A stretch of 64,000 nucleotides of DNA from a virus: the IMG/VR virus record IMGVR_UViG_3300037847_007805, positions 15,410 through 79,409 of that record, one strand, 5' to 3'. The position numbers and the translations under genes were made by a program. Below, piece after piece: positions 2,480 to 39,692 of this stretch (position 1 is the first letter of the stretch; every line of letters starts with the position of its first letter). Below the pieces are notes generated by a model. The model was given only the letters and a program-made list of their open reading frames with translations. It searched no databases and was not told the DNA's origin.

Positions 2480-5400
2480 ATGAGTGCAAAAGCAAAATAC
2501 GAAAGTTTAGATAGAAGTAAATTGGACAAAGGGGTTCTAAAACTTCTCGATGTTATGAAGAAAAAAACAGACAACTTTGAAAACAAAGAAGTTGTAAAAG
2601 CATCTAAAGTAGAAGGTGCTTTGGATAAGCTGATAGCTAAATATCCTGATGCTGTTAAAAAGTCAAAGCCAAAAGCTAAAGCCAAGCCAAAAGCAAAGGC
2701 GAAAGCAAAAGCTAAATCTACAGGTTCTCCTAAAAAAGAAACTGTAATGACTGTGGCTAAAAGAATTAGAAAGGACGGAGAAAAATGGCAAGATGCACTC
2801 AAAAGAGCCAAAGCAGAAATGGGTAAAGAAACCAAAAAATCTAAATCTGCTGTTGAATCTGAAATGGATAAATTAAAGAAACTAATTGCCGAAGATAGTG
2901 TTCTAAAAGGATTTCAAAAATCTGACTTACAAAGAGATTCTGTAAGAAAAGCTAAACCAAGAGGAAAAAGAAAATCTACTACCAAAGGTGAAACTACTAA
3001 TCAATATGGTACATTCAAAAATAAAGTTGGTAGACCTTATTGGGAAAGCAGAGAAAATCGTTCTGATAGATATGCACCAAAATATCCTGCTAACAAACCA
3101 TTTTTAGAAGATGGTGGAGTAATTGTAGGTGGTTCAACAGTTCTTAGAAACAATGCCGATATAATGGATTTAGGAATTGCTAATTCTGATGCTGTATTTA
3201 AGCACGGTGGGGCAATACATAAAATGAGAAAAGAAAAAGATATTGACATTTACGAAGAACAAATGAAACATGGTGGTAAAACGCATGGTTCAGATTGTGG
3301 CTGTAAAACCTGTATGGAAAAAGGTGGTATGGTTGAGTATGCTATTTTAGAAGATTATGATGGGAATGACATAGAAAAAATGAAGTTTCCAAAACCAATA
3401 ATTGAAAGTGAAGTAGTAGAGCCAATGGGTTATTCATTAGCTGATATTGAGGAAGATGAAGATGGAGTTCTTTATGCAAGATTTCAGCAAGATGATGAAT
3501 TTGCTAAAGGTGGAAGAATGAAGCAAGGTTACAATGACCGATTAGACGAAAGTTTAGGTATGCGTGATGGTGTCGAACCTATGATGATGCAATCTTACAA
3601 AGACCGTAGAGATGAATCCAAAGGAATGGAAAAAGCTATGGGTCGTAGAGCATATCAATCGGTTGGCACAATGGATAAAATGGGTCATGGTGGTATGATG
3701 CAAGGTTACAACGATAGATTAGATGAAAGTTTAGGTATGCGTGATGGTGTCGAACCTATGATGATGCAATCTTACAAAGACCGTAGAGATGAATCCAAAG
3801 GAATGGAAAAAGCTATGGGTCGTAGAGCATATCAATCTGTGGGTACTATGGACAAAATGGGCATGGGTGGATATTTATTAGCGGGTGGCACAGGTGCTTA
3901 TTTAGGTGCTAAATATCCTGATAAAGTAAAAAAAGTAACTGACCCGTTAGATAAAGCTGTTGAAGATATAAATAGAAACTTAAGAAATAGATATGAAGAT
4001 GGCGGACTTGTAGTAGGTGGCTCAACAGTCCTAAGAGATAACGGAGATATTATGCCCTTGGGAACTGCTAATGCCGATGCAGTATTTCAGACAGGTGGAG
4101 TTACAGCCCAAACTGTTGTAAACCCAAATGAAGCGATGGCTGATTTACAAAGCACTTATGGTTTTGATGATGTTTATGCTAAAGGTGGGAAGATAAAAAT
4201 TAGGAATGGCAAGGTAGTAAAAACCGATATAATTCACGAAAAGGAATCGTTAGGTTTGCCATTTCGAATTGTTTATTCTAAATTTTTAAGAGCAAATGAT
4301 ATTTCTGAATCATCTTTGTCATTGGCAGATTCACTTGAACTTGAAACTATTGCGTTAAATGAGTGGGAAAAAAGTAATAAAACCTACGCTAAAGGGGGTT
4401 ATATTGTTGAATGGTATGAAAATGACCAAAATAATTTTGAATACTTTGATAGCAACGAACTTAATGAGGCAAAGGACTTCTATAAATTTATTAAAGACGA
4501 AAAATTCTATTACGAGAAACCTAAAGTGGTTTTAACTTCAAGAAGTGATGGAGAAGTATTAATGGGTAAAAAATTTGCTAAAGGTGGTAAAATTGATGTA
4601 AGTAATTATAAAATCAATTATTTTGAAACTGAAAGCGATAGAGATAGTGGCGAATCTCAACAATTTGATTCTTTTGAAACTGATTATGATGCTTTCATAA
4701 ATGATGCAAGACGTTTATATAAAAGAGATGGAATGGAAGCTGTTGAGGTTTTAAACGAAAAAGGAGAAACAGTCGTAATTTTTGATAATGACACTCCCGA
4801 TGGAGAATTTTATATGACTAAACCTTCCAAAAAATCTTCTAAATTAGAAGTTGGAGAATTTCAAGTAGGCAAAAGGGTAGGATTTATAAATACTCCACAC
4901 GATGAAAGAGTTGGTGAAATTGTGGGAGAAGAACAGAATGGTAAATACCCTGTTAAATTAAAAAGCAAAATACACCAAGGATTTGAAGATAGAAAAGGTG
5001 AGCCAAAACTCATAAAAAGAGAGAACTTAATTAGATTATATAGTAGATGGGACGAAAGGGAAGAATTGGAGAAAAAATTTGATAGCGAAATGAAAAGAAT
5101 TTCACCTAAACAAATAGATAGGATTAAAAAAGAGTATGAAAAATATGAAGATATGCTCTCTCCTAAAAGGGATAATCCCGAATTTCAGGAATTTTTTGTC
5201 AGAGAATCCCAAAAAATATCCATGGCTAAAGGTGGGAAGATTGATAATATGATAGGTAAAAAAGTTAAAGTTGATTTCAGAAAAGAGGTAGGCAAAATAA
5301 TAAATATAGAAAATGATGATGTTACTGTTTTTTATCCTGAATTGGGATTTTCAGAAGTATTAGATGCTAAAGCAGTAGAAATTGTTTTTTTACCAAATAA

Positions 5401-6595
5401 ATTCGCTAAAGGTGGGGAGATTGATGGATTTACTATGAGCATGGTCAAATCAAGTGGAGATGTTACAAAAGTTGAAACCGAAGATGCTAAAATCAAAATG
5501 GCTAAAGGTGGTATAGTAAAAAACCAAGATGAAAACCATTTATTGCGAACTGCAATAGGTTATTCAATAAGTAAAGGTAATCTTGATAAAGAAGATAGAA
5601 AAAAATTAACTGAAATATACAATAGGTTAGTTAGTTCAAAATTTCATTATGCTAAAGGTGGTAAAGTTGATGACTTAGGAAACCCAACAGACCCAAAAGT
5701 CATTTCACAAATGGAAAAATTTATAAAAGAAAAAATGCCTAAATTGGATAAGGATAGATTTTTTACAGATGGAATGAAAAGAAAAGAAGCAAAAAGAATG
5801 TTCTATGAAAAATATGGTTATGGTGCTTATAACCCAAGGTTTTCAATTTTTGAAAAAGGTGGAAGGACAATGTATGATGCACCACCAAGTAAAATAGGTA
5901 AAGTGAAATTTTCTTTAGCAAAGGGTAGAGATTTTGACATAATTGTTCCTGAAGGTAAATTCAGGATTTTACGAATCCCCCCTTTTGATTTACCAACAGA
6001 AGTTGTCGATATGAATAAAGGAAAAAATTTCCAAAAAACTCCCGTAAATGATAGTAAAATTGCTCAAAAATATCAAAAAGAAATTCAAGAGTATTTAAAT
6101 ATGGATAGTACAAGATTTGAAAAAGGTGGTAAAATAGGATTTGAAGCATTGTCAAAAAAAGTTGCTAAAAGATATGTTGGCAAAAAAGTTCCTAAAAAAT
6201 TCCAAAATCAATATGGTAAAACATATAGTCCTGCCGAAGCAAAAGAAGTTGGAGATAAAGTAGCAGGTGCAGTATACAGAATGCAACAGGCTAAAAAAAT
6301 GGCTAAAGGTGGTAAAACACAAGGGTACAATGATAAACTTGATGAAAGTTTAGGAAACACCAAAGGGAAGCGTTCTACTAAAGAGCAAAACTATAAAGAC
6401 CGCAGAAATGAATCCGAAGCAATGGAGAAAAAGGGCGGTAAAAGAAAGTATGCCCGTGTGAAAACAATGGATAAAGGTTCAAGAAAAAAGAAGCCAAATA
6501 GCTTTTTTGCTGTTGTAAAAAGAAAGCAGAAAAAAGGAGAGGCTTGGCAAGATGCTATTCAAAGAGTAAAAAAAGAAATGAAAATGAATAAATAA
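2480..6595 (+). CDS. Large Lys-rich modular protein punctuated by [FMYL]xxGG motifs; candidate core/cargo polyprotein
   Basis: About 19 motifs such as FAKGG, MAKGG, YAKGG, FEKGG separate unrelated modules; basic termini share GE[KA]WQDA. Confidence 0.6.
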   Translation: MSAKAKYESLDRSKLDKGVLKLLDVMKKKTDNFENKEVVKASKVEGALDKLIAKYPDAVKKSKPKAKAKPKAKAKAKAKSTGSPKKETVMTVAKRIRKDGEKWQDALKRAKAEMGKETKKSKSAVESEMDKLKKLIAEDSVLKGFQKSDLQRDSVRKAKPRGKRKSTTKGETTNQYGTFKNKVGRPYWESRENRSDRYAPKYPANKPFLEDGGVIVGGSTVLRNNADIMDLGIANSDAVFKHGGAIHKMRKEKDIDIYEEQMKHGGKTHGSDCGCKTCMEKGGMVEYAILEDYDGNDIEKMKFPKPIIESEVVEPMGYSLADIEEDEDGVLYARFQQDDEFAKGGRMKQGYNDRLDESLGMRDGVEPMMMQSYKDRRDESKGMEKAMGRRAYQSVGTMDKMGHGGMMQGYNDRLDESLGMRDGVEPMMMQSYKDRRDESKGMEKAMGRRAYQSVGTMDKMGMGGYLLAGGTGAYLGAKYPDKVKKVTDPLDKAVEDINRNLRNRYEDGGLVVGGSTVLRDNGDIMPLGTANADAVFQTGGVTAQTVVNPNEAMADLQSTYGFDDVYAKGGKIKIRNGKVVKTDIIHEKESLGLPFRIVYSKFLRANDISESSLSLADSLELETIALNEWEKSNKTYAKGGYIVEWYENDQNNFEYFDSNELNEAKDFYKFIKDEKFYYEKPKVVLTSRSDGEVLMGKKFAKGGKIDVSNYKINYFETESDRDSGESQQFDSFETDYDAFINDARRLYKRDGMEAVEVLNEKGETVVIFDNDTPDGEFYMTKPSKKSSKLEVGEFQVGKRVGFINTPHDERVGEIVGEEQNGKYPVKLKSKIHQGFEDRKGEPKLIKRENLIRLYSRWDEREELEKKFDSEMKRISPKQIDRIKKEYEKYEDMLSPKRDNPEFQEFFVRESQKISMAKGGKIDNMIGKKVKVDFRKEVGKIINIENDDVTVFYPELGFSEVLDAKAVEIVFLPNKFAKGGEIDGFTMSMVKSSGDVTKVETEDAKIKMAKGGIVKNQDENHLLRTAIGYSISKGNLDKEDRKKLTEIYNRLVSSKFHYAKGGKVDDLGNPTDPKVISQMEKFIKEKMPKLDKDRFFTDGMKRKEAKRMFYEKYGYGAYNPRFSIFEKGGRTMYDAPPSKIGKVKFSLAKGRDFDIIVPEGKFRILRIPPFDLPTEVVDMNKGKNFQKTPVNDSKIAQKYQKEIQEYLNMDSTRFEKGGKIGFEALSKKVAKRYVGKKVPKKFQNQYGKTYSPAEAKEVGDKVAGAVYRMQQAKKMAKGGKTQGYNDKLDESLGNTKGKRSTKEQNYKDRRNESEAMEKKGGKRKYARVKTMDKGSRKKKPNSFFAVVKRKQKKGEAWQDAIQRVKKEMKMNK
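3524..3870 (+). repeat. Tandem 177-bp (59-aa) duplication within the 1371-aa ORF
   Basis: QGYNDRLDESLGMRDGVEPMMMQSYKDRRDESKGMEKAMGRRAYQSVGTMDKMG occurs twice; divergent third copy near 6320. Confidence 0.9.
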
Positions 6596-15127: not shown

Positions 15128-15820
15128 ATGTCAAATGTACGCAGATATTTAGCAAATGCACAGAGAATGGCAAACGAATCTTTCTCTAATGCAGATGGTT
15201 TCATTGATGATGATTTGTCTTTCACAGGCGAAGATTTTTTCAGTGCTAATGGAGTAGGCGGTGGTTCAGCACCAACTTCTCAACCATATATTGTTACTGT
15301 AACTTCTACATCAGGAAGTGCTGTATCAAACTTTAAGGTGCTTGGTTCTTACGAGTATCTTAACAATTCAGGTTTCACCGCAGGTGGCGACCTTGTAATT
15401 GGTTCAATCACTATTTCAAGTGGAATTTCAGGTATCACATACCGTGAAATGTTGTACCAATTTATGAACAATCCGTATAGTGTAGGACTTACTTATGTAC
15501 AGTCAGCTACAGCTAATCAGATTTTGGAAACTATTTCTGTTAATACAAGAGATGCTAACGGTAATGAAGCACAAAAAACACTTGTGCCAACAATCGACCC
15601 GTATCAGCAACAATCTACAGTATTAGCTATGAAATATGCTTACCGAATTGATGGTTTCACAAAACTAATCATTCGTCAGATTTTAGCTAACGCTACTGTT
15701 AAATTGTACTTCTACCCATCTGACAACATTAACCTTGCAAGAGGTCTTGCAGGACAAAATGTTTCTCGTCAGTACGGAAACCCAGGCATTGTAAAAGCAC
15801 AAACTATCAAATTAACATAA
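15128..15820 (+). CDS. Candidate major capsid protein, probably single jelly-roll
   Basis: Beta-rich and soluble; follows the packaging ATPase; flanked by a promoter element and a strong terminator; frequent TTC/AAC/CGT codons suggest high expression. Confidence 0.6.
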   Translation: MSNVRRYLANAQRMANESFSNADGFIDDDLSFTGEDFFSANGVGGGSAPTSQPYIVTVTSTSGSAVSNFKVLGSYEYLNNSGFTAGGDLVIGSITISSGISGITYREMLYQFMNNPYSVGLTYVQSATANQILETISVNTRDANGNEAQKTLVPTIDPYQQQSTVLAMKYAYRIDGFTKLIIRQILANATVKLYFYPSDNINLARGLAGQNVSRQYGNPGIVKAQTIKLT

Positions 15821-15860
15821 TTAGATAGTTAATGCTTAACAATAGTATTGGATAATTAAC

Positions 15861-15896
15861 AAGGGGCGGATTGATTTATTCAACTTGCCCCTTTTT
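15861..15896 (+). terminator. Intrinsic terminator after the capsid candidate
   Basis: AAGGGGC...GCCCCTT stem running into a T tract. Confidence 0.8.
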
Positions 15897-15910
15897 AAAA
15901 TTTAAAAACT

Positions 15911-16276
15911 ATGGACGTATATAATTATGTAGCAGGTGCATCACCAATTAAAGCACAGGGTATTATAAACAGCTTTGGATATAAAGTCGTAGATAAAAAC
16001 GATATGGGTGGAAACCTTAAGTCGCTTGTGGCAAAAGAGGGAGAACCCGCACTTAAAATGATATTAGAATCACACCCTGATAAAGATGTGATTTTAGAAC
16101 TTTACGGAACTTCTGAAGGGGAGTGTAAAACCTGTAGAGATTCACAAATTATAGAAAAATTTTTAAACGCAAGTGGTAAAGAGCAAAGCGAGGCTAAAAA
16201 AAGTGATAATAACTTTTCATTAGTTTTCCTTGCAGGTATTTTGGCATTATCATTTGCAATCATTTCAAAAAAATAA
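15911..16276 (+). CDS. Virion membrane protein with C-terminal anchor and FLNASG motif
   Basis: Helical N-domain; FSLVFLAGILALSFAIISKK. Confidence 0.65.
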   Translation: MDVYNYVAGASPIKAQGIINSFGYKVVDKNDMGGNLKSLVAKEGEPALKMILESHPDKDVILELYGTSEGECKTCRDSQIIEKFLNASGKEQSEAKKSDNNFSLVFLAGILALSFAIISKK

Positions 16277-16279
16277 AAA

Positions 16280-16951
16280 ATGGCTCGATTTAACAAATTA
16301 GGACAAGCTATTGGTATTGCCATTTCAAAAGATGAGCAGGGAATAAGAAATTTGCTTCAAAGAAACGGTGTATCAACAGCTAACATAAAAACTAAAAACC
16401 AACTTGCAGATGTTTTTGTAGAATCACTTGTCGCATCTAAAGGTTTGGCTCAAGATTTTTCAAACTATGTAAAATCTAAAGATAATGTAAACTTCATGTA
16501 TAATAATGCAGGTGGAATGTATAACAACATGACATTAGAAATGTCATCTTTTGCAAGTGTTGTTGGTGATGGAGTGCCTGATGCTTATAATATGACGGGA
16601 GATGAATCAAATACTAACATTTGGTCGCCTTCAGGAACAAGCACTTCAGTAAATGCTGATGGCGAAAATGAAGAAGAAAAGAAAAAAGGTGGATTTTTTG
16701 AAGGAATAACCTTAAAAGAAATACTTAATCAAGCTAAAGATATTTACTTAGCTGATAAAAATGATTCAATCGCAAGACAAGAAACAGAACAAATAAAGAC
16801 AATAGCTAACACGCAAATCAATAACGATAATTTTTCACCTAACAGAACTTCTCCTGAAAAAAAATCAAACACAGGACTATATATTTTCCTTGGTGTTTTA
16901 GGATTAGCAGTCGTTGGTGGGGTTATTTATTTCGTATCAAAAAAGAAATAA
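16280..16951 (+). CDS. Virion membrane protein with C-terminal anchor and YNNAGG motif
   Basis: DEQGIRNLLQRNG domain shared with neighbours; LGVLGLAVVGGVIYFVSKKK. Confidence 0.7.
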   Translation: MARFNKLGQAIGIAISKDEQGIRNLLQRNGVSTANIKTKNQLADVFVESLVASKGLAQDFSNYVKSKDNVNFMYNNAGGMYNNMTLEMSSFASVVGDGVPDAYNMTGDESNTNIWSPSGTSTSVNADGENEEEKKKGGFFEGITLKEILNQAKDIYLADKNDSIARQETEQIKTIANTQINNDNFSPNRTSPEKKSNTGLYIFLGVLGLAVVGGVIYFVSKKK

Positions 16952-16952
16952 T

Positions 16953-17552
16953 ATGGCAACACAAGACCAATTACGTCAATTAGGAAATGCTGTAGGATTT
17001 TTGTCAGTAGCTGATATTCAAGGGCTTTCTAACCTTTTAGCTAAATATGGCAATATGCCTGATAACATTTCTTATCAAAGTTTGAATAAAGCAACAATAG
17101 AATCTTTATCAAACCGAAATTTTTACCAAGAATTTTTAAGATTAGTTTCTGCTAATGTAAAAGAGGTTGCTCAAATTAACCAATTCAGCAATGTAGCAGG
17201 TGATACGGTTGCAACTACCCCTGCAACCACTCCCGCTTCAACGGGTTCAGGCTTTTTTTCAGGGTTTAACTTAAACACTCTAATCGGTCTTGGAACTACT
17301 ATTTACGCAACTGAATCAGCAGGAAAACAACAAGACAGGCTGTTAAATGCTCAAGCTAATCAACAAGCACAGCAAAACCAAGATACGATTATGGCAGGTC
17401 AATTAGCTTTAGAAACCGAAAAATTAAAACTTGCTCAAATTCAGGCGGGTGGTGGACAAGGCGGTGCTAACAACACTATGCTATATGTAGGATTAGGTAT
17501 ATTAGGATTACTTGTAGTTGGTGGAGTTATTTACGCAGTAGCTAAAAAATAA
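16953..17552 (+). CDS. Paralog of 16280 protein with FSNVAG motif
   Basis: LGNAVG...DIQGLSNLLAKYG; GILGLLVVGGVIYAVAKK; start moved to ATG 16953. Confidence 0.7.
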   Translation: MATQDQLRQLGNAVGFLSVADIQGLSNLLAKYGNMPDNISYQSLNKATIESLSNRNFYQEFLRLVSANVKEVAQINQFSNVAGDTVATTPATTPASTGSGFFSGFNLNTLIGLGTTIYATESAGKQQDRLLNAQANQQAQQNQDTIMAGQLALETEKLKLAQIQAGGGQGGANNTMLYVGLGILGLLVVGGVIYAVAKK

Positions 17553-17555
17553 TAT

Positions 17556-17783
17556 ATGAAAAGTCCAAAAGAGATAGTTGAAGATGTTTCTTCAATGACC
17601 GATGAAAAGAAAAGAAAAGCATTTATGGTAAAAGCACAGTCAAGTGTGCATGGTGCTTTTTGGGGTGGTGCTTTTGGTCTTATGTTCGCTTTTTATAAAG
17701 GCAAAAATAAATATACAAGTGCCTTATTAGGTGCGGGTATTGGTGCGTTAGTGTCGAACCTTTTAACCGTTGAAAAAAAATAA
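17556..17783 (+). CDS. Glycine-zipper two-TM membrane protein
   Basis: GAFWGGAFG and LLGAGIGALV. Confidence 0.65.
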   Translation: MKSPKEIVEDVSSMTDEKKRKAFMVKAQSSVHGAFWGGAFGLMFAFYKGKNKYTSALLGAGIGALVSNLLTVEKK

Positions 17784-17787
17784 AATT

Positions 17788-18060
17788 ATGATAAATCCCG
17801 AAAGAAAGTATACGTTTGGCGACCCCAAGAATAAAAGTCAATTTTTTATAGATAATAATGTGACAATTTTACCTGTTAGGGGTGATAGAATGACAAAAGA
17901 GGAACAAAAAGCTAAAATAGAAGAAGAAAAAATAAAATTACAGGCAAGTCAAGATGAAAAGAAAATAAAGGAAAAAATCAAAAGAAATAAAAATGTTCTT
18001 ATATATGTGGCTGTAGCAGTAGCAGGTTTCTTTGCTTATAAAAAATTATTTAAAAAATAA
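17788..18060 (+). CDS. Small protein with C-terminal anchor
   Basis: VLIYVAVAVAGFFAYKKLFKK. Confidence 0.65.
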   Translation: MINPERKYTFGDPKNKSQFFIDNNVTILPVRGDRMTKEEQKAKIEEEKIKLQASQDEKKIKEKIKRNKNVLIYVAVAVAGFFAYKKLFKK

Positions 18061-18403
18061 AGTTATGAGAAAAATGAGTAAGGAAGCACAATTAGAACGC
18101 TTAAGAAAAAAATTAGCAGAATTTGAGGCTATCATGCAAAAAGGCGGTAAAGTTCAAGGTACTGTTGATAGTTTAAGAAAACAAATTGCTGTTTTAGAAC
18201 AAGCAACTTCAAAAAGCGACAAAAACATTGACTTAAGCAATTTAAAACCTGTCGGTGGTTCTGACACAGAAAAAGAAGTTTTTGAAATGCAAAGACAAGA
18301 ATTTGAAAAGGAAAAAAAGAAAGAAAAAAATAAAAAAATTCTTTTATACGTTGCCCTTGCAGTAGCAGGTTTCTTTGCTTATAAAAAATTATTTAAAAAA
18401 TAA
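18016..18403 (+). repeat. Identical 45-bp direct repeat (18016-18060 and 18359-18403) encoding the membrane-anchor end of two genes
   Basis: gcagtagcaggtttctttgcttataaaaaattatttaaaaaataa occurs twice. Confidence 0.9.
18065..18403 (+). CDS. Coiled-coil protein with C-terminal anchor
   Basis: ILLYVALAVAGFFAYKKLFKK. Confidence 0.65.
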   Translation: MRKMSKEAQLERLRKKLAEFEAIMQKGGKVQGTVDSLRKQIAVLEQATSKSDKNIDLSNLKPVGGSDTEKEVFEMQRQEFEKEKKKEKNKKILLYVALAVAGFFAYKKLFKK

Positions 18404-18829
18404 ATGATGCATCATTCAGATTACATGGAAGATTTTAACAATGCTATGGGTGGAAATTATAATTTCGGACTACATGGTTTTAAGCCTTCAAAAGGTAGTT
18501 TACTAAATACTTCTGTATTGGATAAAAAATTACGAGGAATTAGTGATAGTAGTGAATTGAAATCTGATGTCCAACCATCTGAAGAAGAATTACAAATGCA
18601 AGAAAAATATATGCAAGAGTTGATAGATGCAAATAAAAAATATCGTGCTACTTTAATTGGTGGTAGGATAGGAAGTTCTTTGGGCTTCATTGTAGCTTTA
18701 GGCTACGCTTTTAAAGTAAAGTCAGGATTTTGGAAAGGTTGGGGTTATACAATCTTGGGAAGCATGGCTTTAGGTGGATTAGGGGCAGGAGTAGGTTTTG
18801 CTATTGATTCATCAAAGAAGAATAATTAA
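18404..18829 (+). CDS. Two-TM glycine-rich membrane protein with FNNAMG motif
   Basis: GGRIGSSLG...KSGFWKGWGY...GGLGAGVG. Confidence 0.65.
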   Translation: MMHHSDYMEDFNNAMGGNYNFGLHGFKPSKGSLLNTSVLDKKLRGISDSSELKSDVQPSEEELQMQEKYMQELIDANKKYRATLIGGRIGSSLGFIVALGYAFKVKSGFWKGWGYTILGSMALGGLGAGVGFAIDSSKKNN

Positions 18830-19097: not shown

Positions 19098-19361
19098 ATG
19101 GAAAAGTCAGCAAATCAATTATGGAGAGAAAGCGGTACTTCATTATCTTTTAAAGATTGGATTCAAAGAGAGAAAGATAAAGGTGTACAAATAAAAAACA
19201 AACTCCTTGAAAATGTTGTCGATTCGTTTAAAGAAACTGACGAACAAGACACAATAGATACAACAAGGTTTGCCTTTGGAATACCAAAATGGGTAGTTTA
19301 TACAGGTGTTTCAATTTTAACCTTTGCTGTTGTATATAAACTTTACAAAGCCAAAAAATGA
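19098..19361 (+). CDS. Small protein with C-terminal anchor
   Basis: GIPKWVVYTGVSILTFAVVYKLYKAKK. Confidence 0.65.
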   Translation: MEKSANQLWRESGTSLSFKDWIQREKDKGVQIKNKLLENVVDSFKETDEQDTIDTTRFAFGIPKWVVYTGVSILTFAVVYKLYKAKK

Positions 19362-20146
19362 ATTTAAGGATTAATACCCGATATGAAGAACTATCCTTGG
19401 CTATATATGTACAAACACTTGCACCCTGCAAAATCAGGATAAAAGTTTTTGATGCAGAACAGCCTAAAACTGTTTTTACCGACAGGTATAAAACCGTAAA
19501 AGGAAAAGAGGTTTTTTATGTCAGAATGCCCTTAACTTCAAGCAAGGTAATTGTAAGCATATACAACGAAGCTGTTGGAAATAAAAGGAAAGGCGAAGAT
19601 AGTAGCTTTATTGTTACAGAGGTCAAAAAACTTCCGTTGCAAAAAAGAACAGATGTTGGCGATATAAAAGATTATACCGTTTCAGCTTTTGTAGATTTTG
19701 CACAAAGGTTTTCATTTAATGCCTCGTATTTAGACGACAATAAAACTTATCAGAGCCAAAGCGGAGAGTTTTTGATAGAGTATTTACCAAATATAGTTAG
19801 TTCAAAAACAGGGAAAAAAATGAAAACCCCTGCTCGAATTTCCAAAGTAAATGGTAGAATACAAGTATCAAAAGAAGCGTTTGACACATATACTGTACCT
19901 ATGCGTATGGCTATATTGTTACACGAATTTTCCCACTTTTATTTAAATGATAATATGGACGATGAGGTTGAAGCTGACCTTAATGGTCTTTTAATCTATT
20001 TAGGCTTGGGCTATCCAAGGATAGAAGGTTATCAGGCTTTTTTAGAGGTGTTTCAAGAAAGTCCATCACAACAGAACAGAAACCGTTATGATATTATAAA
20101 TAAATTCATAAGGGATTTTGAGAATAATAAAATGGTAATGAATTAA
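19358..20146 (+). CDS. Zincin metalloprotease (HExxH); candidate maturation protease
   Basis: ILLHEFSHF followed by DEVEAD third-ligand motif; located in the structural block. Confidence 0.7.
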   Translation: MNLRINTRYEELSLAIYVQTLAPCKIRIKVFDAEQPKTVFTDRYKTVKGKEVFYVRMPLTSSKVIVSIYNEAVGNKRKGEDSSFIVTEVKKLPLQKRTDVGDIKDYTVSAFVDFAQRFSFNASYLDDNKTYQSQSGEFLIEYLPNIVSSKTGKKMKTPARISKVNGRIQVSKEAFDTYTVPMRMAILLHEFSHFYLNDNMDDEVEADLNGLLIYLGLGYPRIEGYQAFLEVFQESPSQQNRNRYDIINKFIRDFENNKMVMN

Positions 20147-20157
20147 AAAAATTAAAC

Positions 20158-20295
20158 ATGGCAAAGAAAATGAACGCATATATGAAAGCACTACAAAAAG
20201 CAAGAAAAAGCGGTGCAAGTAGTTTTAAGTACAATGGCAAAACATACAAGAAAGCTAAGACCAAAACAGGTATGGTAATTTATAAAGCAAGATAA
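20158..20295 (+). CDS. 45-aa basic protein (not in ORF track), possible DNA-condensing core protein
   Basis: MAKKMNAYMKALQKARKSGASSFKYNGKTYKKAKTKTGMVIYKAR. Confidence 0.6.
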   Translation: MAKKMNAYMKALQKARKSGASSFKYNGKTYKKAKTKTGMVIYKAR

Positions 20296-24643: not shown

Positions 24644-27600
24644 ATGAGCATTCAGGTATCTTTAGCCAACGATATTAAAGTCGTTCAGGGCAATGGTTTA
24701 GCTATCTTTTTAGATAGTGATACAAACCTTTTAACCCTGAAAGATACTAATGGGTGTGTTCAAGCCCTCGACAGTTATATATTACAAGAGGGGATTACTG
24801 AAATTATAGCGGGTTGTTGTATAACAGGTGGTGGCACATCTGCAATAGTTACAATTAATCACGCAGACACTTCTTCATTAGATGGCGATTATGGTGCTAC
24901 AGGTTCTCAAAATGGCTGTTACATCAAATCTGTTACAGTTGATGGTCTTGGACATTTAACAGGTGTAACAAGTGCTAATTTTGATACAAGATATTTAGGA
25001 ATTTGTGCTTGTGCTTGTGATTCAGCTTCGTTAAACGCTTTAGACCCTGATTACTATTTAAACTTTTGTAATTTTTTCAATGTCCCACCATTAGGAGATA
25101 TAACTGATGTTGTTGCAGGAGATGGTTTAGGCGGTGGTGGTTGTTGTGGTTGTATTACTTTATGTAACACAGATAAAGGTTCAGACCAAGCAATTATAAA
25201 AAGAATTGCAGATAATTCTTCAACAGTATTTACAGCTTCCACCAATAATGATTTGTTTTGTATTGTTGGAACAGGGGCTATAAGCACATCTATAAGTGGA
25301 GATACTTTAACAATATCTTCTTCAACTGTTGCTAATAATTGTCAAATTGAGGTTTCGGCAGGTACAGGTTTAAGTGGTGGTGGCTGTTTTAACTTAAATC
25401 AAAGTTCTAATTGTACACTTACTATTAATAACTGCGATAGAGGTTCACAGCAAAATATATTTAAAAACATTGCTGTATCAGGACAAAATACAATTATTGC
25501 AGGTTCAAATACAGCCACATTAACTTTAGTTGAGGGTGCTAACATTGATATTACTACTTGTACTACTGATGGTTCGGTAACAATAAGCAGTACACAGTCA
25601 GCCCCAAATAATTGTCAAATACAAATTACAGGCGGAGATGGGCTTGGGGGAAGTGCAACCTTTACTTTAAATCAAGCAACAAATGGTAGTTTCTCACTTT
25701 GTAATACAGACAAAGGTTCTGACCAATGCTTTTTTCAAAACATTGCGGTTGTTGGTTCATGCACGATAACAGCAGACAGTAATGCCGACACCGTTTGTTT
25801 ATCAGCAGGAACAGGAATTACTCTAACCTCTGACAGTTCTCAAGATTTAATTACGATAGGTACTACAGCTACAGGCTGTACAGGAACAGTAACCGAAGTA
25901 TGTGTACAAAGTGGCACAACAGGTTCTGATTTTAATGTTTCGGGTAGCCCGATTACAACTTCAGGAACAATTACTTTAAACTTGCCCATAGCAAGTGCGA
26001 CCAAAACAGGTAAATTATCATGCACAGATTGGGCAACATTTAATAGTAAAACGTCATGCACAGGAACAGTAACAAGCGTAGGGTTCTGCACAGCAGAAGG
26101 GGGAACAGATGTCAATGTATCAGGAAGTCCGATAACGTCAAGCGGGGACATAACATTGAACATACCGATTGCAAGTGCAACAAAAACAGGTAAATTATCA
26201 TCAACTGATTGGAGTGATTTTGATGCAAAAGTAGATGATGTAACAGCAGGTTCAGGTATTGCGGTAAGTGGAACTGATACTATTGAAGTAACAAATACTG
26301 ACAAAGGTTCAGACCAATGTATATTTAAAACATTTGCAGTTTCAGGACAAAATGATATTGTAGCTGATTCAAATAGCGACACGCTTACTTTTGCAGGTTC
26401 AGGTATTGCAATTACAACTGATGATGCTACAGACACCATTACATTCACCGTTACTGATGCAGGTGGTACGGTTACAGAGATTTGTGGTGCAGTAGGAACA
26501 ACGGGAACAGATTTTAATGTTTCAGGAAGTCCAATCACGACAAGTGGAACTCTAACCTTTAACCTTCCTGATGCGAGTGCAACCTCAAGAGGTGCATTAA
26601 CAAGTACAGATTGGAGTACATTTAATTCTAAAACAACTTGCACGGGTACAGTAACAAGTGTCCAAATTGGTGGGGGAGAAGGAATTGTAGCCACAGGAAC
26701 TAATCCTGTTACAACAAGTGGTACTATAAATCTTGCAGTTTGCCTTAATGAATTAACAACAACAACAGATAATGATTGCGGTTGTTATTTTGCTGTAGTA
26801 GATTCTTCAGGTGTACAAAGTAAACTTTGTAAATCAAACATAAATAATTCAGGATTCAACAATGATGCGGGATATACAACCTGTACAGGAACTGTATCGA
26901 GTGTAGGATTGTCAGCAGGAACAGGAATATCTGTTTCAGGAAGCCCCGTTACGGGAAGCGGAACTATGACGGTTACAAATACTGACCGTGGTTCTTCTCA
27001 ATGCATTTTTAAATGTGTGGCTGTTTCAGGACAAACAACAATAGAAGCTGATAGCAATGCCGATACATTAACCTTTGCAGAGGGAACGGGTATTACTATA
27101 ACAACTGATGATTCAACAGATACTATTACGATTTCAAATGAAGGTGCAGACGGAACAGTTACTTGTATAAATTTTGCTACAGATGAATCGGGTACTAATG
27201 TAGGGGTGTCAGGTGTTCCGATTACAACAAGCGGAACAATAACTTTATCTATACCTGAAGCAAGTGCTACTTCTACAGGTAAACTTACTGCAACTGATTG
27301 GAGTACATTCAACTCTAAAACCACTTGTACGGGTACTGTAACAAGTGTTGGTCTTACAACGGGAACAACAGGGACAGATGTAAATGTTTCAGGAAGCCCC
27401 GTTACAGGAAGTGGTAATATAACTTTAAATATACCTACTGCAAGTGCTACAAAGAGAGGTGCATTATCCTCTACTGATTGGAGTACATTTAACTCCAAAA
27501 CTACTTGTACAGGTACAGTAACAAGCGTGGGTCTTGCTACTGATGAAACGGGAACAGACGTAGCTGTATCGGGAAGCCCTGTAACGGGAAGTGGAGATAT

Positions 27601-30600
27601 AACGCTTTCTATTCCTGTGGCAAGTGCAACTAAAACAGGTAAATTATCAAATACAGATTGGACTACATTTAATTCTAAAACAACCTGTACAGGAACTGTA
27701 ACAAGTGTTTCAGGCGGGGCAGGTTTAACGGGAACTGTAACAACTTCAGGCTCTATTTGTGTTGATTATGCAGGTGCAGATAATATAATTTTAGCAAGTC
27801 CTTGTACAGCTACAGGCACATTAGATGTCGATGACTTTATTATGATAAATAATTGTAACACAAATAATGTTACAAAATCAGCTATATCTAATTTACCTTT
27901 CTCAAATTGTTCAGGAACTGTTACAAGCGTAGGTTTAACCACAGGAACAACAGGTACTGATGTAAATGTATCGGGAAGTCCTGTAACGGGTAGTGGGGAC
28001 ATTACCTTAAATATACCCGATGCAAGTGCAACCTCAAGGGGTGCTTTAACAAGTACAGATTGGTCTACATTTAATTCAAAAACGACTTGTGTTGGTACGG
28101 TTACAAGCGTAGGTATTACAAGTGGTGGTGGATTAAGTGTTTCAGGTAGCCCTATAACTACAAATGGAGATATAACTGTTACAAATACAGATAAAGGTTC
28201 TGACCAATGCATATTCAAAACTTTTGCAGTTTCAGGTCAAGATGATATTGTAGCCGATTCTAATAGTGATACTGTTACTTTTGCAGGTTCAGGTATTGCG
28301 ATTACAACCGATAATACTACAGATACAATAACATTTACAGTTACCGATGCAGGTGGTACGGTTACAGAGATTTGTGGTGCGGTTGGAACTTCAGGAAGTG
28401 ATTTTAACGTAACAGGAAGTCCAATAACGACAAGCGGAACTCTAACCTTTAACCTTCCGACAGCGAGTGCAACAAAACGAGGTGCTTTATCAAGTTCAGA
28501 TTGGACTTCATTTAATTCTAAAGTAGACGATGTAACCGCAGGTGCAGGTATAAGTGTAACAGGTTCGGGTACTAAAACCGTTACAAATACAACCTGCATA
28601 TTTAAAAATATAGCTTCAACAGGTCAATCCACTTTAGTTGCAGACAGCTTGACTGATACGGTAAATATAGAATCAGGAACAGGGATTTCTATAACTACAG
28701 ATGATACTACTGACACCTTAACTATAGCAAACACACTTAGTGTATCTGATTGTACAATCTGTATTCAAGCAGGTTCAGGTCTTGGTGGTGGTGGAGATTT
28801 TACCTTAAATCAAAGTTCAGGTGAAACTGTAACTTTAACAAATGCTGACAAGGGTTCTTCCCAATGCATTTTCAAAAATATAGCTGTTTCAGGTCAAAAC
28901 ACAATTTCAGCAGACAGCAATGCCGACACACTTACTTTTGCAGGTTCGGGTATAGCAATTACAACTGATGATAGTACAGACACGGTTACGTTTACAGTAA
29001 CAGATGCAGGTGGTACAGTAACCTGTATAAATGCAGTTGCTTGTAATACAGGTTCAGATATTTCTGTTACAGGAGTTCCAATTACCACAAGTGGAGAAAT
29101 ATGTATTAACATACCGACAGCAAGTGCAACTAAACGAGGTGCTTTATCATCTACAGATTGGTCTACATTCAATAGCAAAACAGATTGTACGGGTACAGTT
29201 ACAAGCGTATCGGGTGGAGTAGGTCTTACAGGAACAGTAACAAGTTCAGGAAATATAAATGTAGATTACTTAGGTACAGACAATATAATTTTATCAGCTA
29301 CAAATTGTGAAGGTGCTTCAGCTTCTTCAGGATTTACATTACTATTAAATGATGATTCCACTTGTAATGTCGGAAGATATGAATTAAGTGATTTACCATT
29401 TTCAAATTGTGGTGGAACTGTTACAAGCGTAGGTTTAACAACTAACGAATCAGGAACAGATGTTTCAGTATCGAACAGTCCAATTACAAGTAGCGGGGAT
29501 ATTACCCTATCAATACCGATTGCAAATGCGACCAAAACAGGTAAATTATCTAATACAGATTGGAGTACATTTAACGCAAAAACTACTTGTGTTGGAACAG
29601 TAACAAGTGTAGGAATTACAAGTGGCGGGGGCTTAAGTGTATCAGGTAGTCCGATTACAACAAACGGTGATATAACCGTAACAAATACAGATAAAGGGTC
29701 TGACCAATGTATATTTAAAAATATAATAGTTTCGGGTCAAGACACTATATCTGCCGAAATAAATGATGATAGCTTAACCCTTATTGCGGGTACAAATATG
29801 TCTATCTCAACAAATTGCACTTTAGATTCAATAACCTTTGCTTCGACAGGAACAACTTGCACAGGAACAGTTACAAGTGTTGGGCTTACAGCAGGTACAG
29901 GAATATCTGTTTCAGGAAGTCCAATTACAAGTAGTGGCTCTATTACAGTTTGTAATACTGATAAAGGTTCAGACCAATGCATATTTAAAACTTTTGCGGT
30001 TTCAGGTCAAGATGATATTGTTGCTGATTCAAATAGTGATACTCTTACTTTGGTAGGTTCAGGAATTGCAATCACAACTGATGACACAACCGATACAATT
30101 ACTTTTACTGTAACTGATGCAGGTGGAACTGTAACTTGTGTTTGTACTACAGCACCTTTAACAGGGGGTAATTTTTCTACTACGGGTACAATAGGTATTA
30201 CCGAAGCAGATTCAACAACAGATGGTTATTTATCATCTACAGATTGGAATACATTTAACGATAAAACCGATTGTACAGGAACTGTTACAAGCGTTGGACT
30301 TACAGCAGGTTCAGGTATTTCTGTTTCAGGAAGCCCTATAACAGGAAGTGGGTCTATAACTGTTACGAACTCTGACAAAGGTTCTGACCAATGTATGTTT
30401 AAGTGTATTGCTGTAGCGGGACAAGATACTATTGTAGCTGATAGTAACACCGATACTCTTACAGTTGTCGGTGGAAATAATATATCAGTTTTAACAAATG
30501 CCACAAGTGATACTCTAACTATTTGTACTATATCTACATCATGCACAGGTACTGTTACGAGTGTTGGTCTTTGTACGGGTACTGCGGGTTCAGATGTAAA

Positions 30601-33600
30601 TGTTACAGGCACACCTGTTACAAGTAGTGGTAACATAACTTTAAATGTTCCAACAGCGAGTGCAACGAAACGAGGTGCTTTATCTTCTACAGATTGGTCT
30701 ACTTTTAATAGTAAAACTGATTGTGTAGGAACTGTTACAAGTGTAGGTTTAACAGCAGGTACGGGAATATCTGTATCAGGAAGCCCTGTAACAAGTAGTG
30801 GCTCAATAACTGTATGTAATACTGACAAAGGTTCTTCGCAATGTATTTTCAAATCTATCGCAGTATCAGGACAAAATACTATTACAGCAGATAGCAATGC
30901 CGACACACTTACATTTGCAGGTTCAGGTATAGCTATTACGACTGACGATAGTACCGATACTGTAACATTTACAGTAACTGATGCGGGTGGAACTGTTACA
31001 GAGGTTTGTGCAGTTACAGGAACATCGGGTACAGATTTTAATATAGGTGGAAGTCCAATTACTACAAACGGAACTCTAACCTTCAATCTCCCTGTTGCTT
31101 CGGCTTCAGCTACAGGTAAATTATCTTCAACTGATTGGAATACATTTAATAATAAAACTGATTGCACGGGAACGGTTACAAGCGTTTCAGGTAGCAATGG
31201 ATTATGTGGAAGTGTTACAACTTCAGGAAGTATTTGTGTAGATTATGCAGGAGTTGATAACATAATTTTATCAGCAACAGACGTAACGGGTAATACTATA
31301 GGTTCAACCGATAAATTACTTATTTCTTGTCAAACTAATGGTAATGTTGGTTATTATTGTGTATCTGATTTACCATTTTCAAATTGTACAGGTACTGTTA
31401 CAAGTGTAGGATTAACAGCAGGTTCGGGTATTTCCGTTTCAGGTAGCCCTATAACGGGTAGTGGCTCAATGACTGTTACTAACTCTGATAGAGGTTCTTC
31501 TCAATGTATCTTTAAAACTTTTGCTGTATCAGGACAAAACGATATTGTAGCTGATTCAAATAGCGACACAGTAACTTTAGTAGGTTCAGGTATTGCAATA
31601 ACTACAGACGATTCTACAGATACAATAACATTTACTGTTACAGATGCAGGGGGTACGGTAACAAGTGTAGGATTGTGTACAGGAACTACAGGTACAGATA
31701 TAAATGTTTCAAATACACCTATTACTACAAGTGGTAATATAACTTTAAACGTACCAACCGCAAGTGCATCAAATCGTGGTGCTTTATCAAGTACAGATTG
31801 GAGTACATTTAACGACAAACTTGATGATGTTACCGCAGGTGTAGGTATATCCATTTCAGGTTCAGGAAATAAAACTATATGCAATAGTGATAGAGGTTCT
31901 GCACAATGTATATTTAAAAAGGTGGCAGTTTCAGGACAAGCTACAATTCAAGCTGACACAAATGATGACACGCTTACTTTTGCAGAAGGTACAGGCATTA
32001 CAATTACAACAAATGATACAACCGATACTGTTACGATAAGTAGTTCAATCGTTGGTGATATTACTTGCGTGGGTGCAGGTGCAGGACTAACGGGTGGGGG
32101 TAGCACAGGTGATGTAACATTATGCGTAGATTATGGTAGTACAGGTCTGATTGCAGATGCAACTTGTGTTGGTTCAGTAAGTAGTTCAGATTTCTTATTA
32201 GTAGGTTTAGCCGATAGTAGTTCAGGAGAAACAAGAAAAATTGAAATAGTTGATTTCTTCTCTTGTGTCGGTGGAGATATAACAGGAGTAACAGGCTCGG
32301 GTGGACTATGTGGTGGTGGAACTTCAGGTGCTGTAACTGTTTGTGTAGATTATGAGGGTGCTGACAACATTATTTGTACAGCTTCTTCATGTGAAGGCAC
32401 AGCTATAGGAACAGGTGATGCAATAATTGTTAATGAAGATGCATCAGATTGTGTTAGACGACATTTAGTAAGTGATTTACCATTTTCAAATTGTACAGGT
32501 ACTGTTACAAGTGTAGGTTTGACCGCAGGTTCAGGAATTTCGGTTTCAGGAAGTCCAATAACGGGTAGTGGTTCAATGACTGTTACTAACTCTGACAGGG
32601 GTTCTTCACAATGTATTTTCAAAACTATAGCCGTATCAGGTCAAAGTGATATAGTCGCAGATACAAATAGCGATACTTTAACATTTGCAGAGGGAACTAA
32701 TGTTACAATAACCACAAACGCTACAAGTGATACTCTTACTATTTCTTCATCTGCAACAACTTGTACAGGAACTGTAACAAGTGTAGGTCTTACAACGGGT
32801 ACAACAGGGACAGATGTAAATGTTTCAGGAAGTCCAATTACAGGAAGTGGTGATATTACTTTAAATATACCTACTGCAAGTGCATCAAATCGTGGTGCTT
32901 TATCATCTACAGATTGGTCTACATTCAATGATAAAACTGATTGCTTAGGAACTGTTACAAGTGTAGGTTTAACAGCAGGTACGGGAATATCAGTTTCAGG
33001 AAGCCCTATTACAAGTAGCGGGTCAATGACTGTTACGAACTCTGATAGAGGTTCTTCACAATGCATATTTAAAACGATTGCTGTTTCAGGACAAAGTGAT
33101 ATTGTAGCAGATACAAATAGTGATACACTTACATTTGTTGGTTCGGGTGTTACAATTACTACAGATGCATCAACCGATACAGTTACTTTCACAGCTACAC
33201 AGGGAGATATTACAGGTGTTACAGGAACAAGTGGTCTTTGCGGTGGTGGAACAGTAGGAGATGTTTCAGTATGTGTAGATTATGCAGGTACAGATAACAT
33301 TATTGCTTGTTCCCCTTGTACAGCAACGGGTACACTTTCTACAAGTGATTGTATTATGATTAGTAACAATGCTACTAACAATGTTACTAAAGCAACAATA
33401 GGTTTATTACCATTCTCAAATTGTCAAGGTGATATAACAAACGTAACAGCTACTTGTGGATTGTGTGGCGGTGGTGCTTCAGGTAGTGTATCAGTTTGTG
33501 TTGATTATTGTGGAAGTGATAATATAATTTTAGCCTCACCATATCCTGCGTTTGTAATCAATTCAAGTGATAAAATTCTTACTACAAACACTTCTAATTG

Positions 33601-37414: not shown

Positions 37415-37726
37415 ATGGCAAAAAAGATTCAAGAAACACAAAAAATTGAAAAAGAAGAACTTAAGGAGTTACAAGAATTAGTAGGTGCTACTACTGATGC
37501 AAACAACAGGATTGCACAACTTTGTCTTAACAAAGAAAGAACTTTTAGAAATCTTCAAAAGGAGTTTGATGAGAGCATGGAACTTATTGAACTTCAAATA
37601 AAAGAAGCTAATGAAAAGCAAGTTGAATTTGTTAAAGAATTAGACAGCAAGTACGGTCAGGGCAAAAGCTATGACCTATCCACAGGGGAAATAAAAGATG
37701 TGGAGAAAAAAGATGAAAGTAATTGA
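37415..37726 (+). CDS. Coiled-coil protein, possible fibre chaperone
   Basis: ELDSKYG...DLSTGEI terminal motif of the kind seen next to phage fibre genes. Confidence 0.5.
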   Translation: MAKKIQETQKIEKEELKELQELVGATTDANNRIAQLCLNKERTFRNLQKEFDESMELIELQIKEANEKQVEFVKELDSKYGQGKSYDLSTGEIKDVEKKDESN

Positions 37727-38249
37727 CCCTGCTGATAAAGTAATACAAAACGTAATTTTTGAGAAACCCGAAGTCGTAGTAAAGATTTTGAGGGATAGCG
37801 GTGTGTCTGTATCTAACAGACCTACTCTTGATGAAATTACTGAAAAAACATTTGTAGAGGTTTACGATAAGCAGAACAAAGAGTTTGCTAAAAAGTTTGA
37901 TAGCTTAATCAAAACGGGTGAGTACAACAATGCTGTAGGTATTGTTCTAACTATTGCTTCAGGTATCTTTTCGGGTATCATGGGTTCAAGACAAGCAAGA
38001 AAGCAAAGGGCAACTATGGAAAGAATTGCTGTTGCTCAATTAGAAAATGATAAATTACTTGCCCAAGACCAAAACAGAATTTACGGAGAAACCGAAAGAA
38101 CTAAAATTTTAGCAAGTAGCTTACTCGATTATAGAGGTAAACTACAAGATGCTTCCACAGAAAGACAAAAAAATGTTTATTATTACTTGATTGCCCTTGG
38201 ATTAGGAATATCAATTATTTATGGTACAAACTTATTATTAGCTGACTAA
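37713..38249 (+). CDS. Virion membrane protein of the 16280 family with YNNAVG motif
   Basis: PEVVVKILRDSG domain, EYNNAVG followed by a hydrophobic helix, C-terminal TM. Confidence 0.65.
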   Translation: MKVIDPADKVIQNVIFEKPEVVVKILRDSGVSVSNRPTLDEITEKTFVEVYDKQNKEFAKKFDSLIKTGEYNNAVGIVLTIASGIFSGIMGSRQARKQRATMERIAVAQLENDKLLAQDQNRIYGETERTKILASSLLDYRGKLQDASTERQKNVYYYLIALGLGISIIYGTNLLLAD

Positions 38250-38590
38250 TGGCAAAGCAAGGTGGATTTGACGTAGGTAATTTAGCGGGTACTTTAATTA
38301 GTACCTTTATTGGTATTGGCTTTGCTAAAAATGATGCTAAAAAACAGCGACAGCTTCAAGAAAAGATAGCAAATATGTCGCTTGAAAATCAACAAGCAAT
38401 CGCTAATAGATTAGCAGAGGCACAAACAAACATTGAAAAACAAAGAATAGCTTTTCAAATTTTAGCACTTGAAAACAACGCTAATTTAGTAAGAGAATTA
38501 GAGGGAGAAAAAAATAAATCATTAATTGTTCTTGGTGTTGGTGCTATCGCACTTGCAGTTGTTATAGTTTTAGCAAAATTTAAAAAGTAG
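38249..38590 (+). CDS. Membrane protein (hydrophobic helix, coil, C-terminal anchor)
   Basis: Resembles the C-terminal half of the 37713 and 16953 proteins. Confidence 0.65.
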   Translation: MAKQGGFDVGNLAGTLISTFIGIGFAKNDAKKQRQLQEKIANMSLENQQAIANRLAEAQTNIEKQRIAFQILALENNANLVRELEGEKNKSLIVLGVGAIALAVVIVLAKFKK

Positions 38591-39149: not shown

Positions 39150-39692
39150 ATGGGAGTATATTCACCATCAACAACATCTTTTCCTAACGGGGTGGTTACT
39201 ATAGAAAGTGAAGATGACACTTTGTATAGCACCATTCAAGAAGCTGTTGCAGGTTCTCATAACTACCAAATCAATGAAATTTACCTAAAAGCAAACGACA
39301 TATCCCAAATCCTACAGCCGATTACTTTTCAAAAGTATGATTCAAATGGAGATATTCTTGAGGATAAAAGAGTTCCCACAGTAGACCCATTTTCATTTCA
39401 ACCTTCTATAAAAATAAATTTTAAAAACAAGGATTATATTTTAGATGGTCGCTTAGAAATAGATTATACAGTCAAAGGTGGAGAAGAAGTTTATTTCTAT
39501 TTAGATACGACTGTGTTAGACAATGGTGCATTACTTGGCGATGATAAAAGTATGCCGAAAGATTTTTTGAAAACATATAATTTTTTCCAAGATTACGGAA
39601 AAGAAATAGAAATTGATTTTAGTTATGACGAAAGGGCAATACCTGAATGCACAGACCAAGAGGCGAGTGATTTCAGGACTGAAAACAGGTGA
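39150..39692 (+). CDS. Paralog of the candidate capsid protein (second or minor capsid protein)
   Basis: QILQPI...DSNG...VPTVDP...YILDG aligns with QILETI...DANG...VPTIDP...YRIDG of 15128. Confidence 0.65.
   Translation: MGVYSPSTTSFPNGVVTIESEDDTLYSTIQEAVAGSHNYQINEIYLKANDISQILQPITFQKYDSNGDILEDKRVPTVDPFSFQPSIKINFKNKDYILDGRLEIDYTVKGGEEVYFYLDTTVLDNGALLGDDKSMPKDFLKTYNFFQDYGKEIEIDFSYDERAIPECTDQEASDFRTENR

Follow-up and report, generated by a model that had tools for sequence, protein, structure and literature searches.

In virus families, motifs that recur in several structural proteins have mostly proved to be protease sites. In phage T4, short N-terminal capsid targeting leaders end in the L/I-x-E cut site of gp21, which is shared with the coat protein. 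For the tailless membrane-containing viruses of prokaryotes (PRD1, PM2 and SH1/P23-77 types), we know of neither proteolytic maturation nor a shared assembly peptide code. In adenovirus, consensus sites recur in several structural precursors and are conserved across the genus; some of the proteins have more than one site or contiguous sites, and the peptides that are freed have roles of their own (PMC4246237). Vaccinia virus cleaves its membrane protein A17 at an AG-X site; the N-terminus of A17 binds D13, a jelly-roll scaffold, and core condensation further requires the activity of a second protease, G1 (PMC4213562). Here we describe a six-residue motif, [FY]-x-N-[AV]-x-G, in the candidate coat protein and several membrane proteins encoded by a 64,000-nucleotide stretch of viral DNA (the window), which is the last 64 kb of the 79,409-bp IMG/VR record IMGVR_UViG_3300037847_007805, rated complete by CheckV. 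The motif is probably a short linear recognition peptide read by one common partner in particle assembly. This partner is most likely a viral protease, which we infer to be the zincin-like protein with an HExxH motif encoded from position 19358.

A motif shared by the coat-protein arm and membrane proteins

The strict pattern was defined on this window, so its counts in relatives serve as an independent test. A six-frame scan located the six strict copies and the variant SVNADG where the sequence-only reading had placed them (Table 1; proteins are named by the first base of their genes), and the other five frames gave a single extra strict match, in a 17-codon stretch. The rest of the 79-kb genome held no further strict copy, and all the strict copies are confined to the plus-strand structural module. 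When each protein was shuffled, 0.86 copies were expected in the window and none of 2000 shuffles reached the observed six; for the block 15128-18829, five copies were found against 0.096 expected. Because the six copies differ in DNA at synonymous sites, the signal is at the protein level, and a DNA-level signal is ruled out.

Two sets of relatives were used: 35 viral contigs with coat proteins 71-81% identical, and 22 further loci that were found via the HExxH protein and have coat proteins 50-76% identical. Among the 976 open reading frames (ORFs) of the window and the 35 related loci, the strict motif occurs 125 times in the forward and once in the reversed sequences, and only three matches were obtained when the final Gly was swapped for Ala, Ser or Pro. 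The shuffles and the reversed-sequence control thus rule out chance or composition as the source of the motif, and with them falls the objection, raised in the sequence-only reading itself, that it might be no more frequent than background. Copies were found in the coat arm, in the 15911, 16280, 16914 and 18404 proteins, in orthologs of the 19098 protein and in more membrane proteins of the relatives. The proposal of a conserved signal common to the coat N-terminal arm and several membrane proteins is thereby upheld in relatives; it does not extend to YNNAVG of the 37698 protein, which is absent from both orthologs seen (L068 and L082).

For the candidate coat protein (15128), AlphaFold2 predicts an N-terminal helix at residues 3-17, a disordered acidic arm at residues 18-50 and a confident beta-sandwich core at residues 51-200. 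The predicted local distance difference test score (pLDDT) is below 50 over residues 4-50, so that both arm copies lie in a flexible arm. Among the best fold matches were PR772 chain O (Z 6.4), phiCjT23 (5.7), FLiP (5.4), PM2 (5.2) and PRD1 (5.1), and these matches at Z 5-6.5, which for PR772 and PRD1 are to the penton protein, are intermixed with unrelated beta-sandwiches at equal Z. Foldseek returned nothing below E = 1e-3 for this protein and a PDB sequence search no match; the candidate label "coat protein" rests mainly on gene position, abundance and conservation.

The coat protein has 1916 homologs, and an exhaustive profile search gave 1042 coat-protein clusters at 50% identity. A relaxed motif is present in the arm of 63 of the 98 arm-bearing representatives, compared with 5 when the arms were reversed and a mean of 5.3 when they were shuffled, and the median position of the first copy is residue 19. 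The jelly-roll bodies showed no enrichment (12 observed, 10.4 in shuffles). In nearly all relatives copy 1 is kept at residues 16-22, with its position at residue 18-20 in nearly every genome, and in most a second copy, of the form F[FR]NAxG, follows 18 residues downstream, where the window has FFSANG. When 40 coat proteins, 21-32% identical to the first sequence of their alignment, were compared, the motif Gly was among the 11 columns at least 90% conserved. This result indicates deep conservation of the motif in the coat arm.

The sole deep relative recovered was L090, a metagenome contig with 45% guanine plus cytosine (GC) and a coat protein 37% identical, which carries FSNADG at residue 17 and FGNADG at residue 39. 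The next gene after it encodes a 15911-type tail-anchored protein with FSNACG; in this protein a Cys cluster overlaps the motif. Searches of the viral and genome collections for the deep members P0202 and P0260 gave one low-complexity match only.

Up to three kinds of jelly-roll paralog were seen per genome, namely one with an acidic arm and the motif, one without an arm (39150) and one with a basic amphipathic N-terminus, the last being also common among distant coat representatives (paralog loci L007:2784-3434, L026:3724-4302, window 39150-39692 and L060:3676-5102). L060 has two tandem coat genes with FSNADG in both.

The second protein that was modelled, 15911, consists of a helical domain (residues 1-65, pLDDT >90), a Cys-rich spacer, the motif, a linker, a transmembrane (TM) helix (residues 99-120) and a Lys-Lys tail, with pLDDT of about 45-50 at residues 84-99. 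In the alignment of 34 orthologs (30 distinct sequences) the Asn and Gly of the motif are 100% conserved, and the majority-residue fraction is 0.67 over the eight motif columns versus 0.38 and 0.41 in the flanks. The segments on both sides vary in length: 23 to 46 spacer residues lie ahead of the motif, and 32 to 50 residues between it and the C-terminus. Foldseek found no fold match for the helical N-domain. Most orthologs have a variable Cys cluster (C-x-C-x2-C type, at least four Cys) between this domain and the motif, and this could be a metal site. According to the sequence-only reading, most copies sit at the junction between an N-terminal part and a linker or helix; this is the case in both folded proteins, coat and 15911, and the wider claim rests on those two. 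The further idea that "membrane-active helices" become exposed found no support, as the motif is usually followed by a variable polar linker and not by a helix.

In the 16280 family the motif is optional: about 8 of 20 orthologs have a degenerate copy or none, and L014 has four copies. Common descent of the 15911 and 16280 N-domains as the cause of the shared motif was rejected, since the profile comparison was not significant (1.2% probability). In genomes further away, the 19098 orthologs have F-x-N-A-D-G near residues 40-45. Within the 16280, 19098 and 37698 families the motif thus comes and goes between orthologs. The 38249 protein was said to resemble only the part of 37698 after the motif, and this held, weakly, in BLASTP (residues 91-170, E = 4e-4).

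Table 1. Motif copies and genes of the window discussed in the text
Feature	Position	Strand	Remarks
FSNADG	15182-15199	+	Residues 19-24 of the 15128 coat protein, directly after the N-terminal helix
FFSANG, degenerate second arm copy	15236-15253	+	Residues 37-42 of the 15128 coat protein
FLNASG	16160-16177	+	Residues 84-89 of the 15911 protein
YNNAGG	16499-16516	+	In the 16280 protein
SVNADG, variant copy	16646-16663	+	In the 16280 protein
FSNVAG	17184-17201	+	In the 16914 protein
FNNAMG	18434-18451	+	Residues 11-16 of the 18404 protein
YNNAVG	37923-37940	+	In the 37698 protein, abutting the TM helix
Jelly-roll coat-protein candidate, 230 residues	15128-15820	+	AlphaFold2, homologs, weak fold matches
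Tail-anchored membrane protein, 121 residues	15911-16276	+	Ortholog alignment, AlphaFold2
Tail-anchored membrane protein, 223 residues	16280-16951	+	YNNAGG and SVNADG; motif optional
Tail-anchored membrane protein	16914-17552	+	FSNVAG
Membrane protein, 141 residues	18404-18829	+	FNNAMG
Tail-anchored protein	19098-19361	+	Stop overlaps the start of the HExxH gene; window copy without motif
HExxH (zincin-like) protein, candidate protease	19358-20146	+	Closes the membrane-protein block
Membrane protein	37698-38249	+	YNNAVG
Paralog-like protein	38249-38590	+	BLASTP to the 37698 protein
LRAT/PLAAT-like protein	39613-40077	+	Pfam LRAT; NCEHF motif, C-terminal TM helix

Residue preferences and setting of the motif

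The logo of non-redundant copies reads [ED or G]-x-[FYW]-x-[N]-[A, less often V/M/L/F/S]-x-G, with no conservation beyond the final Gly. The Asn is invariant in the closest 35 genomes; in one clade it is replaced by Gly, giving F-x-G-A-D-G in the 15911 orthologs and in the coat protein of L073, and across the coat family position 3 is N in 31, S in 20 and G in 9 cases. The wider form of the motif is thus [ED]-x-[FYW]-x-[NSG]-[Ala or small hydrophobic]-x-G. An Asn at position 3 is not essential. All three residues, N, S and G, are common in turns and caps, and their alternation points to a requirement for shape.

This variation bears on readings in which the Asn itself reacts, whether by N-glycosylation through viral glycosyltransferases, by nodavirus-like self-cleavage or by a Lys-Asn isopeptide cross-link. 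Glycosyltransferase-like proteins are encoded in the genome, N-A-S/T is frequent in the 15911 family, and the invariance of the Asn among close genomes would agree with such chemistry. Nevertheless, most copies have D, G, V, M, E or N at position 5 and therefore form no N-x-S/T sequon, and the loss of Asn at orthologous positions does not suit the Asn-dependent autoproteolysis of nodaviruses, tetraviruses and reovirus mu1. Since whole clades have Gly or Ser in place of the Asn, we rejected all three forms and consider this the least credible of the readings.

A structural role without any shared partner was also considered, in which the motif would stop a helix or form a tight turn at the start of the flexible linker, for the sake of folding or spacing. 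Each of the two models has a helix that ends immediately ahead of the motif (coat residues 3-17; residues 81-85 of the 15911 protein), and the residues at position 3 together with the Gly at position 6 are what a turn or cap would use. A generic turn, however, needs no combination of an aromatic residue at position 1, an acidic one at -2 and a small hydrophobic one at position 4, nor would it be confined to one gene module or be repeated in tandem, and we regard this role as improbable.

The acidic flank suggests yet another function, an acidic and aromatic "sticker" that binds divalent cations or lets coat and membrane proteins co-condense at assembly sites. The coat arms are net acidic in 68 of the 98 representatives and rich in aromatic residues, and, taken together with its flank, the coat copy is similar to the calcium loop of EF-hands or dockerins at positions 3, 5, 6, 8 and 9. 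Such loops (DxDxDG) have Asp at position 1 and an acidic residue at position 12, whereas the motif begins with F, Y or W; moreover, only the coat copy is acidic downstream, and the other motif proteins lack an acidic pattern after the motif. A sticker of this kind is therefore very improbable.

The distance from the motif to the membrane anchor is not fixed. Copies lie from about 10 to more than 120 residues upstream of the C-terminal TM helix and Lys-Lys tail, others follow N-terminal TM helices, and the soluble coat protein has its own. A C-terminal sorting signal of the sortase or exosortase type (LPXTG, PEP-CTERM, GlyGly-CTERM) was rejected on these grounds, that is, the varying TM distance and the soluble carrier. 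Charge patterns around the motif gave no decision on membrane sidedness.

One paralog family shares an N-terminal TM helix, a basic stretch and the leader SEG-FFNAGG, with the motif about 12 residues after the TM helix, and continues into unrelated Cys-rich domains; judged from these sequences, the family looks like a leader and a cargo joined at a processing site. In the 3772-residue fibre-like protein of the window (ORF 24644-35962), eight copies of L-P-F-[ST]-N-C-x-G-[TD]-[VI]-T at 27899-34621 resemble the motif with Cys at position 4, yet they are embedded in a longer structural repeat, and the fibre-like proteins of relatives have scattered motif-like hexamers.

Other arrangements fit a motif that is bound at least as well as one that is cut. 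Small tail-anchored proteins carry copies at residues 4-11. A tandem array is seen in L003, whose coat protein is 100% identical and whose 16914-type protein has three adjacent copies, and distant coat arms contain Trp-x-x-Ala-Asp repeats. At L014:7273-8037 a 16-residue (48-nt) tandem repeat yields four motif copies; after each of these comes an acidic x-F-Y-D-x-D-E-M segment, similar to the stretch behind copy 1 in the coat arm. Such features would be expected of a docking peptide that is not cleaved, which plugs a pocket of the jelly-roll capsomer or of an assembly factor and so tethers the inner membrane to the coat, the coat arm using the pocket of a neighbour. The copies at the extreme N-terminus would follow a "peptide, linker, anchor" design; repetition in tandem and the varying number of copies point to avidity; the coming and going of the motif between orthologs is like that of evolving short linear motifs; and N/S/G at position 3 with the fixed G at position 6 suggests that a turn shape is required, not a chemistry. 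In the coat protein, the helix and the motif at about residue 19 form a conserved, fixed module with a spacer of variable length to the jelly roll, and free pockets could be provided by the armless paralog 39150. Arrays, copies close to the terminus, the fixed module and the turn-like residues fit docking as well as or better than cutting. On the other side, AlphaFold2 leaves the arm undocked on the core of the coat protein itself and no partner pocket was identified, docking alone leaves a conserved HExxH protein without a known substrate, and the precedent of recurring structural-protein motifs favors protease sites. Docking without cutting is a doubtful reading by itself, although it ranks close behind cleavage.

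Candidate enzymes, proposed cleavage and possible docking

The presence of a conserved HExxH protein in the same gene block as the motif proteins was confirmed across the related loci. In 20 sequences of the 19358 protein, H189, E190, H193, E203, E205 and D207 are invariant, and homologs 47-62% identical were found in 50 loci. It is the third best conserved protein of the module, behind the coat protein and the ATPase. Its gene closes the membrane-protein block in every related locus that reaches this position. In L090 a homolog with 34% identity (E = 1.5e-53) again lies at the end of the membrane-protein block, alongside the motif; for deep lineages, the co-occurrence of the two is based on this one contig. 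No longer or fused forms of the protein were found, a PDB sequence search gave no match, and the ESM Atlas gave weak leads only, to DUF4344 and M48.

Cleavage at the motif by this HExxH protein, with or without prior docking, is the reading we tentatively prefer. As in the protease-site codes of adenovirus, poxviruses and African swine fever virus, one consensus recurs in several structural proteins and lies in exposed flexible segments, judged from the pLDDT and from flanks of variable length. Lying in disordered parts of the coat N-terminal arm and of inner-membrane proteins, the motif would be open to the common partner, which may read it at assembly. The putative metalloprotease encoded at the end of the block would then cut at the motif. 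In the coat protein this would free the N-terminal helix of the arm; in the membrane proteins it would split off the helical domains at the N-terminus, or leaders anchored in the membrane. Such a maturation step would be akin to the ones known from adenovirus and poxviruses. Until the cut is made, these peptides may tether the coat lattice to the membrane, much as A17 of vaccinia virus holds D13. In zincins the residue after the cut (P1'), which the S1' pocket holds, is usually Ala or hydrophobic; because position 4 is always Ala or hydrophobic, our guess is a cut between positions 3 and 4. We favored cleavage as the most economical specific model, since it explains a putative core protease gene in the structural block, the paralogs built as leader, motif and cargo, and the match to the adenovirus and poxvirus pattern.

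Several points weigh against this preference. The conserved coat helix at residues 3-17, which is strongly conserved across the family, is the very segment that cutting would remove, and at the copies located at residues 4-11 cutting would remove almost nothing. The tandem arrays (L014, L003 and Trp-x-x-Ala-Asp) look more like multivalent binding than like cut sites. The best Pfam hits of the 19358 protein, SprT-like, M48 and M56, are below the cut-offs (E about 0.015-0.034), and no curated peptidase family in Pfam was above threshold. Finally, a second candidate cut signal, [FYM]-[AE]-K-G-G, could equally be the substrate of the HExxH protein. It differs from the motif and occurs in giant cassette proteins upstream, not in the coat and membrane-protein block; in the window, a 1371-residue cassette protein (2480-6595) has about 14 such junctions, each followed by K, R or another residue.

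Docking and cleavage can coexist, by analogy with A17 and D13 of vaccinia virus. In a modular code that combines them, used by a large and abundant group of membrane-containing prokaryotic viruses, the coat arm and any membrane protein that has gained the 6-8-residue peptide would bind one and the same site of the jelly-roll lattice, from which a metalloprotease of the virion would later free them; we consider this full "tether-then-cut" scheme unlikely.

A cysteine enzyme, listed at 39625 in the sequence-only reading, had been the other candidate for the cleavage, and it had to be given up. Its gene (39613) encodes a protein that passes the Pfam LRAT cut-off (25.0 bits; cut-off 24.3), and no ortholog was matched in L076 and L084, the two relatives for which the fetched DNA extends beyond the 39150 ortholog. 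The 39613 protein is probably, from its sequence, a lipid enzyme of the LRAT/PLAAT (NlpC/P60 superfamily) type, and a phospholipid-modifying enzyme encoded by a membrane-containing virus would be of interest in itself. A clan CE protease acting at Gly-Gly or Ala-Gly sites is likewise not in accordance with the data, as the motif is a different one, only some of its copies end in GG, and the sole Cys enzyme seen is LRAT-like.

Gene neighborhood, host and comparison with known systems

The block on the plus strand begins with an acidic 324-residue protein, a 270-residue P-loop ATPase and a 42-residue membrane protein, followed by the 230-residue coat candidate, a run of small proteins and the HExxH protein. 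Most of the small proteins have a C-terminal hydrophobic helix and a Lys-Lys tail. The ATPase gave weak AAA hits in Pfam and a terminase-like PHROG hit, and nearly all the window proteins, including those bearing the motif, had no match in Pfam and PHROGs. A very basic, Lys-rich 45-residue protein (20158-20295) with sequence of the K-T-Y-K-K type is 80% identical in four relatives and might serve as a partner that condenses DNA or neutralises the arm.

When a phage collection was searched with the ATPase and the coat protein, no relative and hence no cultured one was found. P0003, which is 94% identical to the 15128 protein, comes from an NCBI contig labelled as a metagenome-assembled genome (MAG) of "Candidatus Pelagibacter bacterium", and the distant family member P0202 is in a MAG of "Candidatus Woesebacteria". 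A Pelagibacter host would suit the GC content of the window, which is about 30%.

The motif is a short and easily mutated peptide, conserved in a coat family whose clusters number more than 1000 and stem from metagenomes of marine, lake and groundwater origin, and it marks the coat protein together with a changing set of membrane proteins. Cut site or tether alike, it can tell which of the small unannotated proteins are likely virion components. It also points to the exact residues to mutate, and it makes assembly in an uncultured virus group testable with nothing but recombinant proteins.

Phage T4 with its leaders differs from the present system in that it is a tailed phage with an HK97-fold coat protein, a serine protease and no membrane proteins, and the sequences are unrelated. 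Adenovirus is a double-stranded DNA virus of the jelly-roll lineage, and its protease AVP acts on a short consensus in several structural proteins (pVI, pVIII, pIIIa, pVII, pTP and L1 52/55k), as is suggested here. However, AVP is a cysteine protease with Gly-based sites (IVGL-G, M-R-G-G), whereas the present motif is aromatic-x-N/S/G-Ala-x-Gly and the only conserved candidate enzyme has HExxH; in addition, the present virus appears to have an inner membrane and a prokaryotic host.

In vaccinia virus, the terminal peptide of A17 binds the jelly-roll lattice and carries a cut motif, recognized by I7, that is shared with core proteins. A17 is the best model for the combined tether-then-cut scheme. 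The motif and the protease class are different, and D13 is a transient double-jelly-roll scaffold of a eukaryotic virus, while here the coat protein itself carries the motif and binding and cutting are putative. If true, tether-then-cut would be a maturation switch like that of poxvirus A17 and D13, run by a zincin in bacterial viruses.

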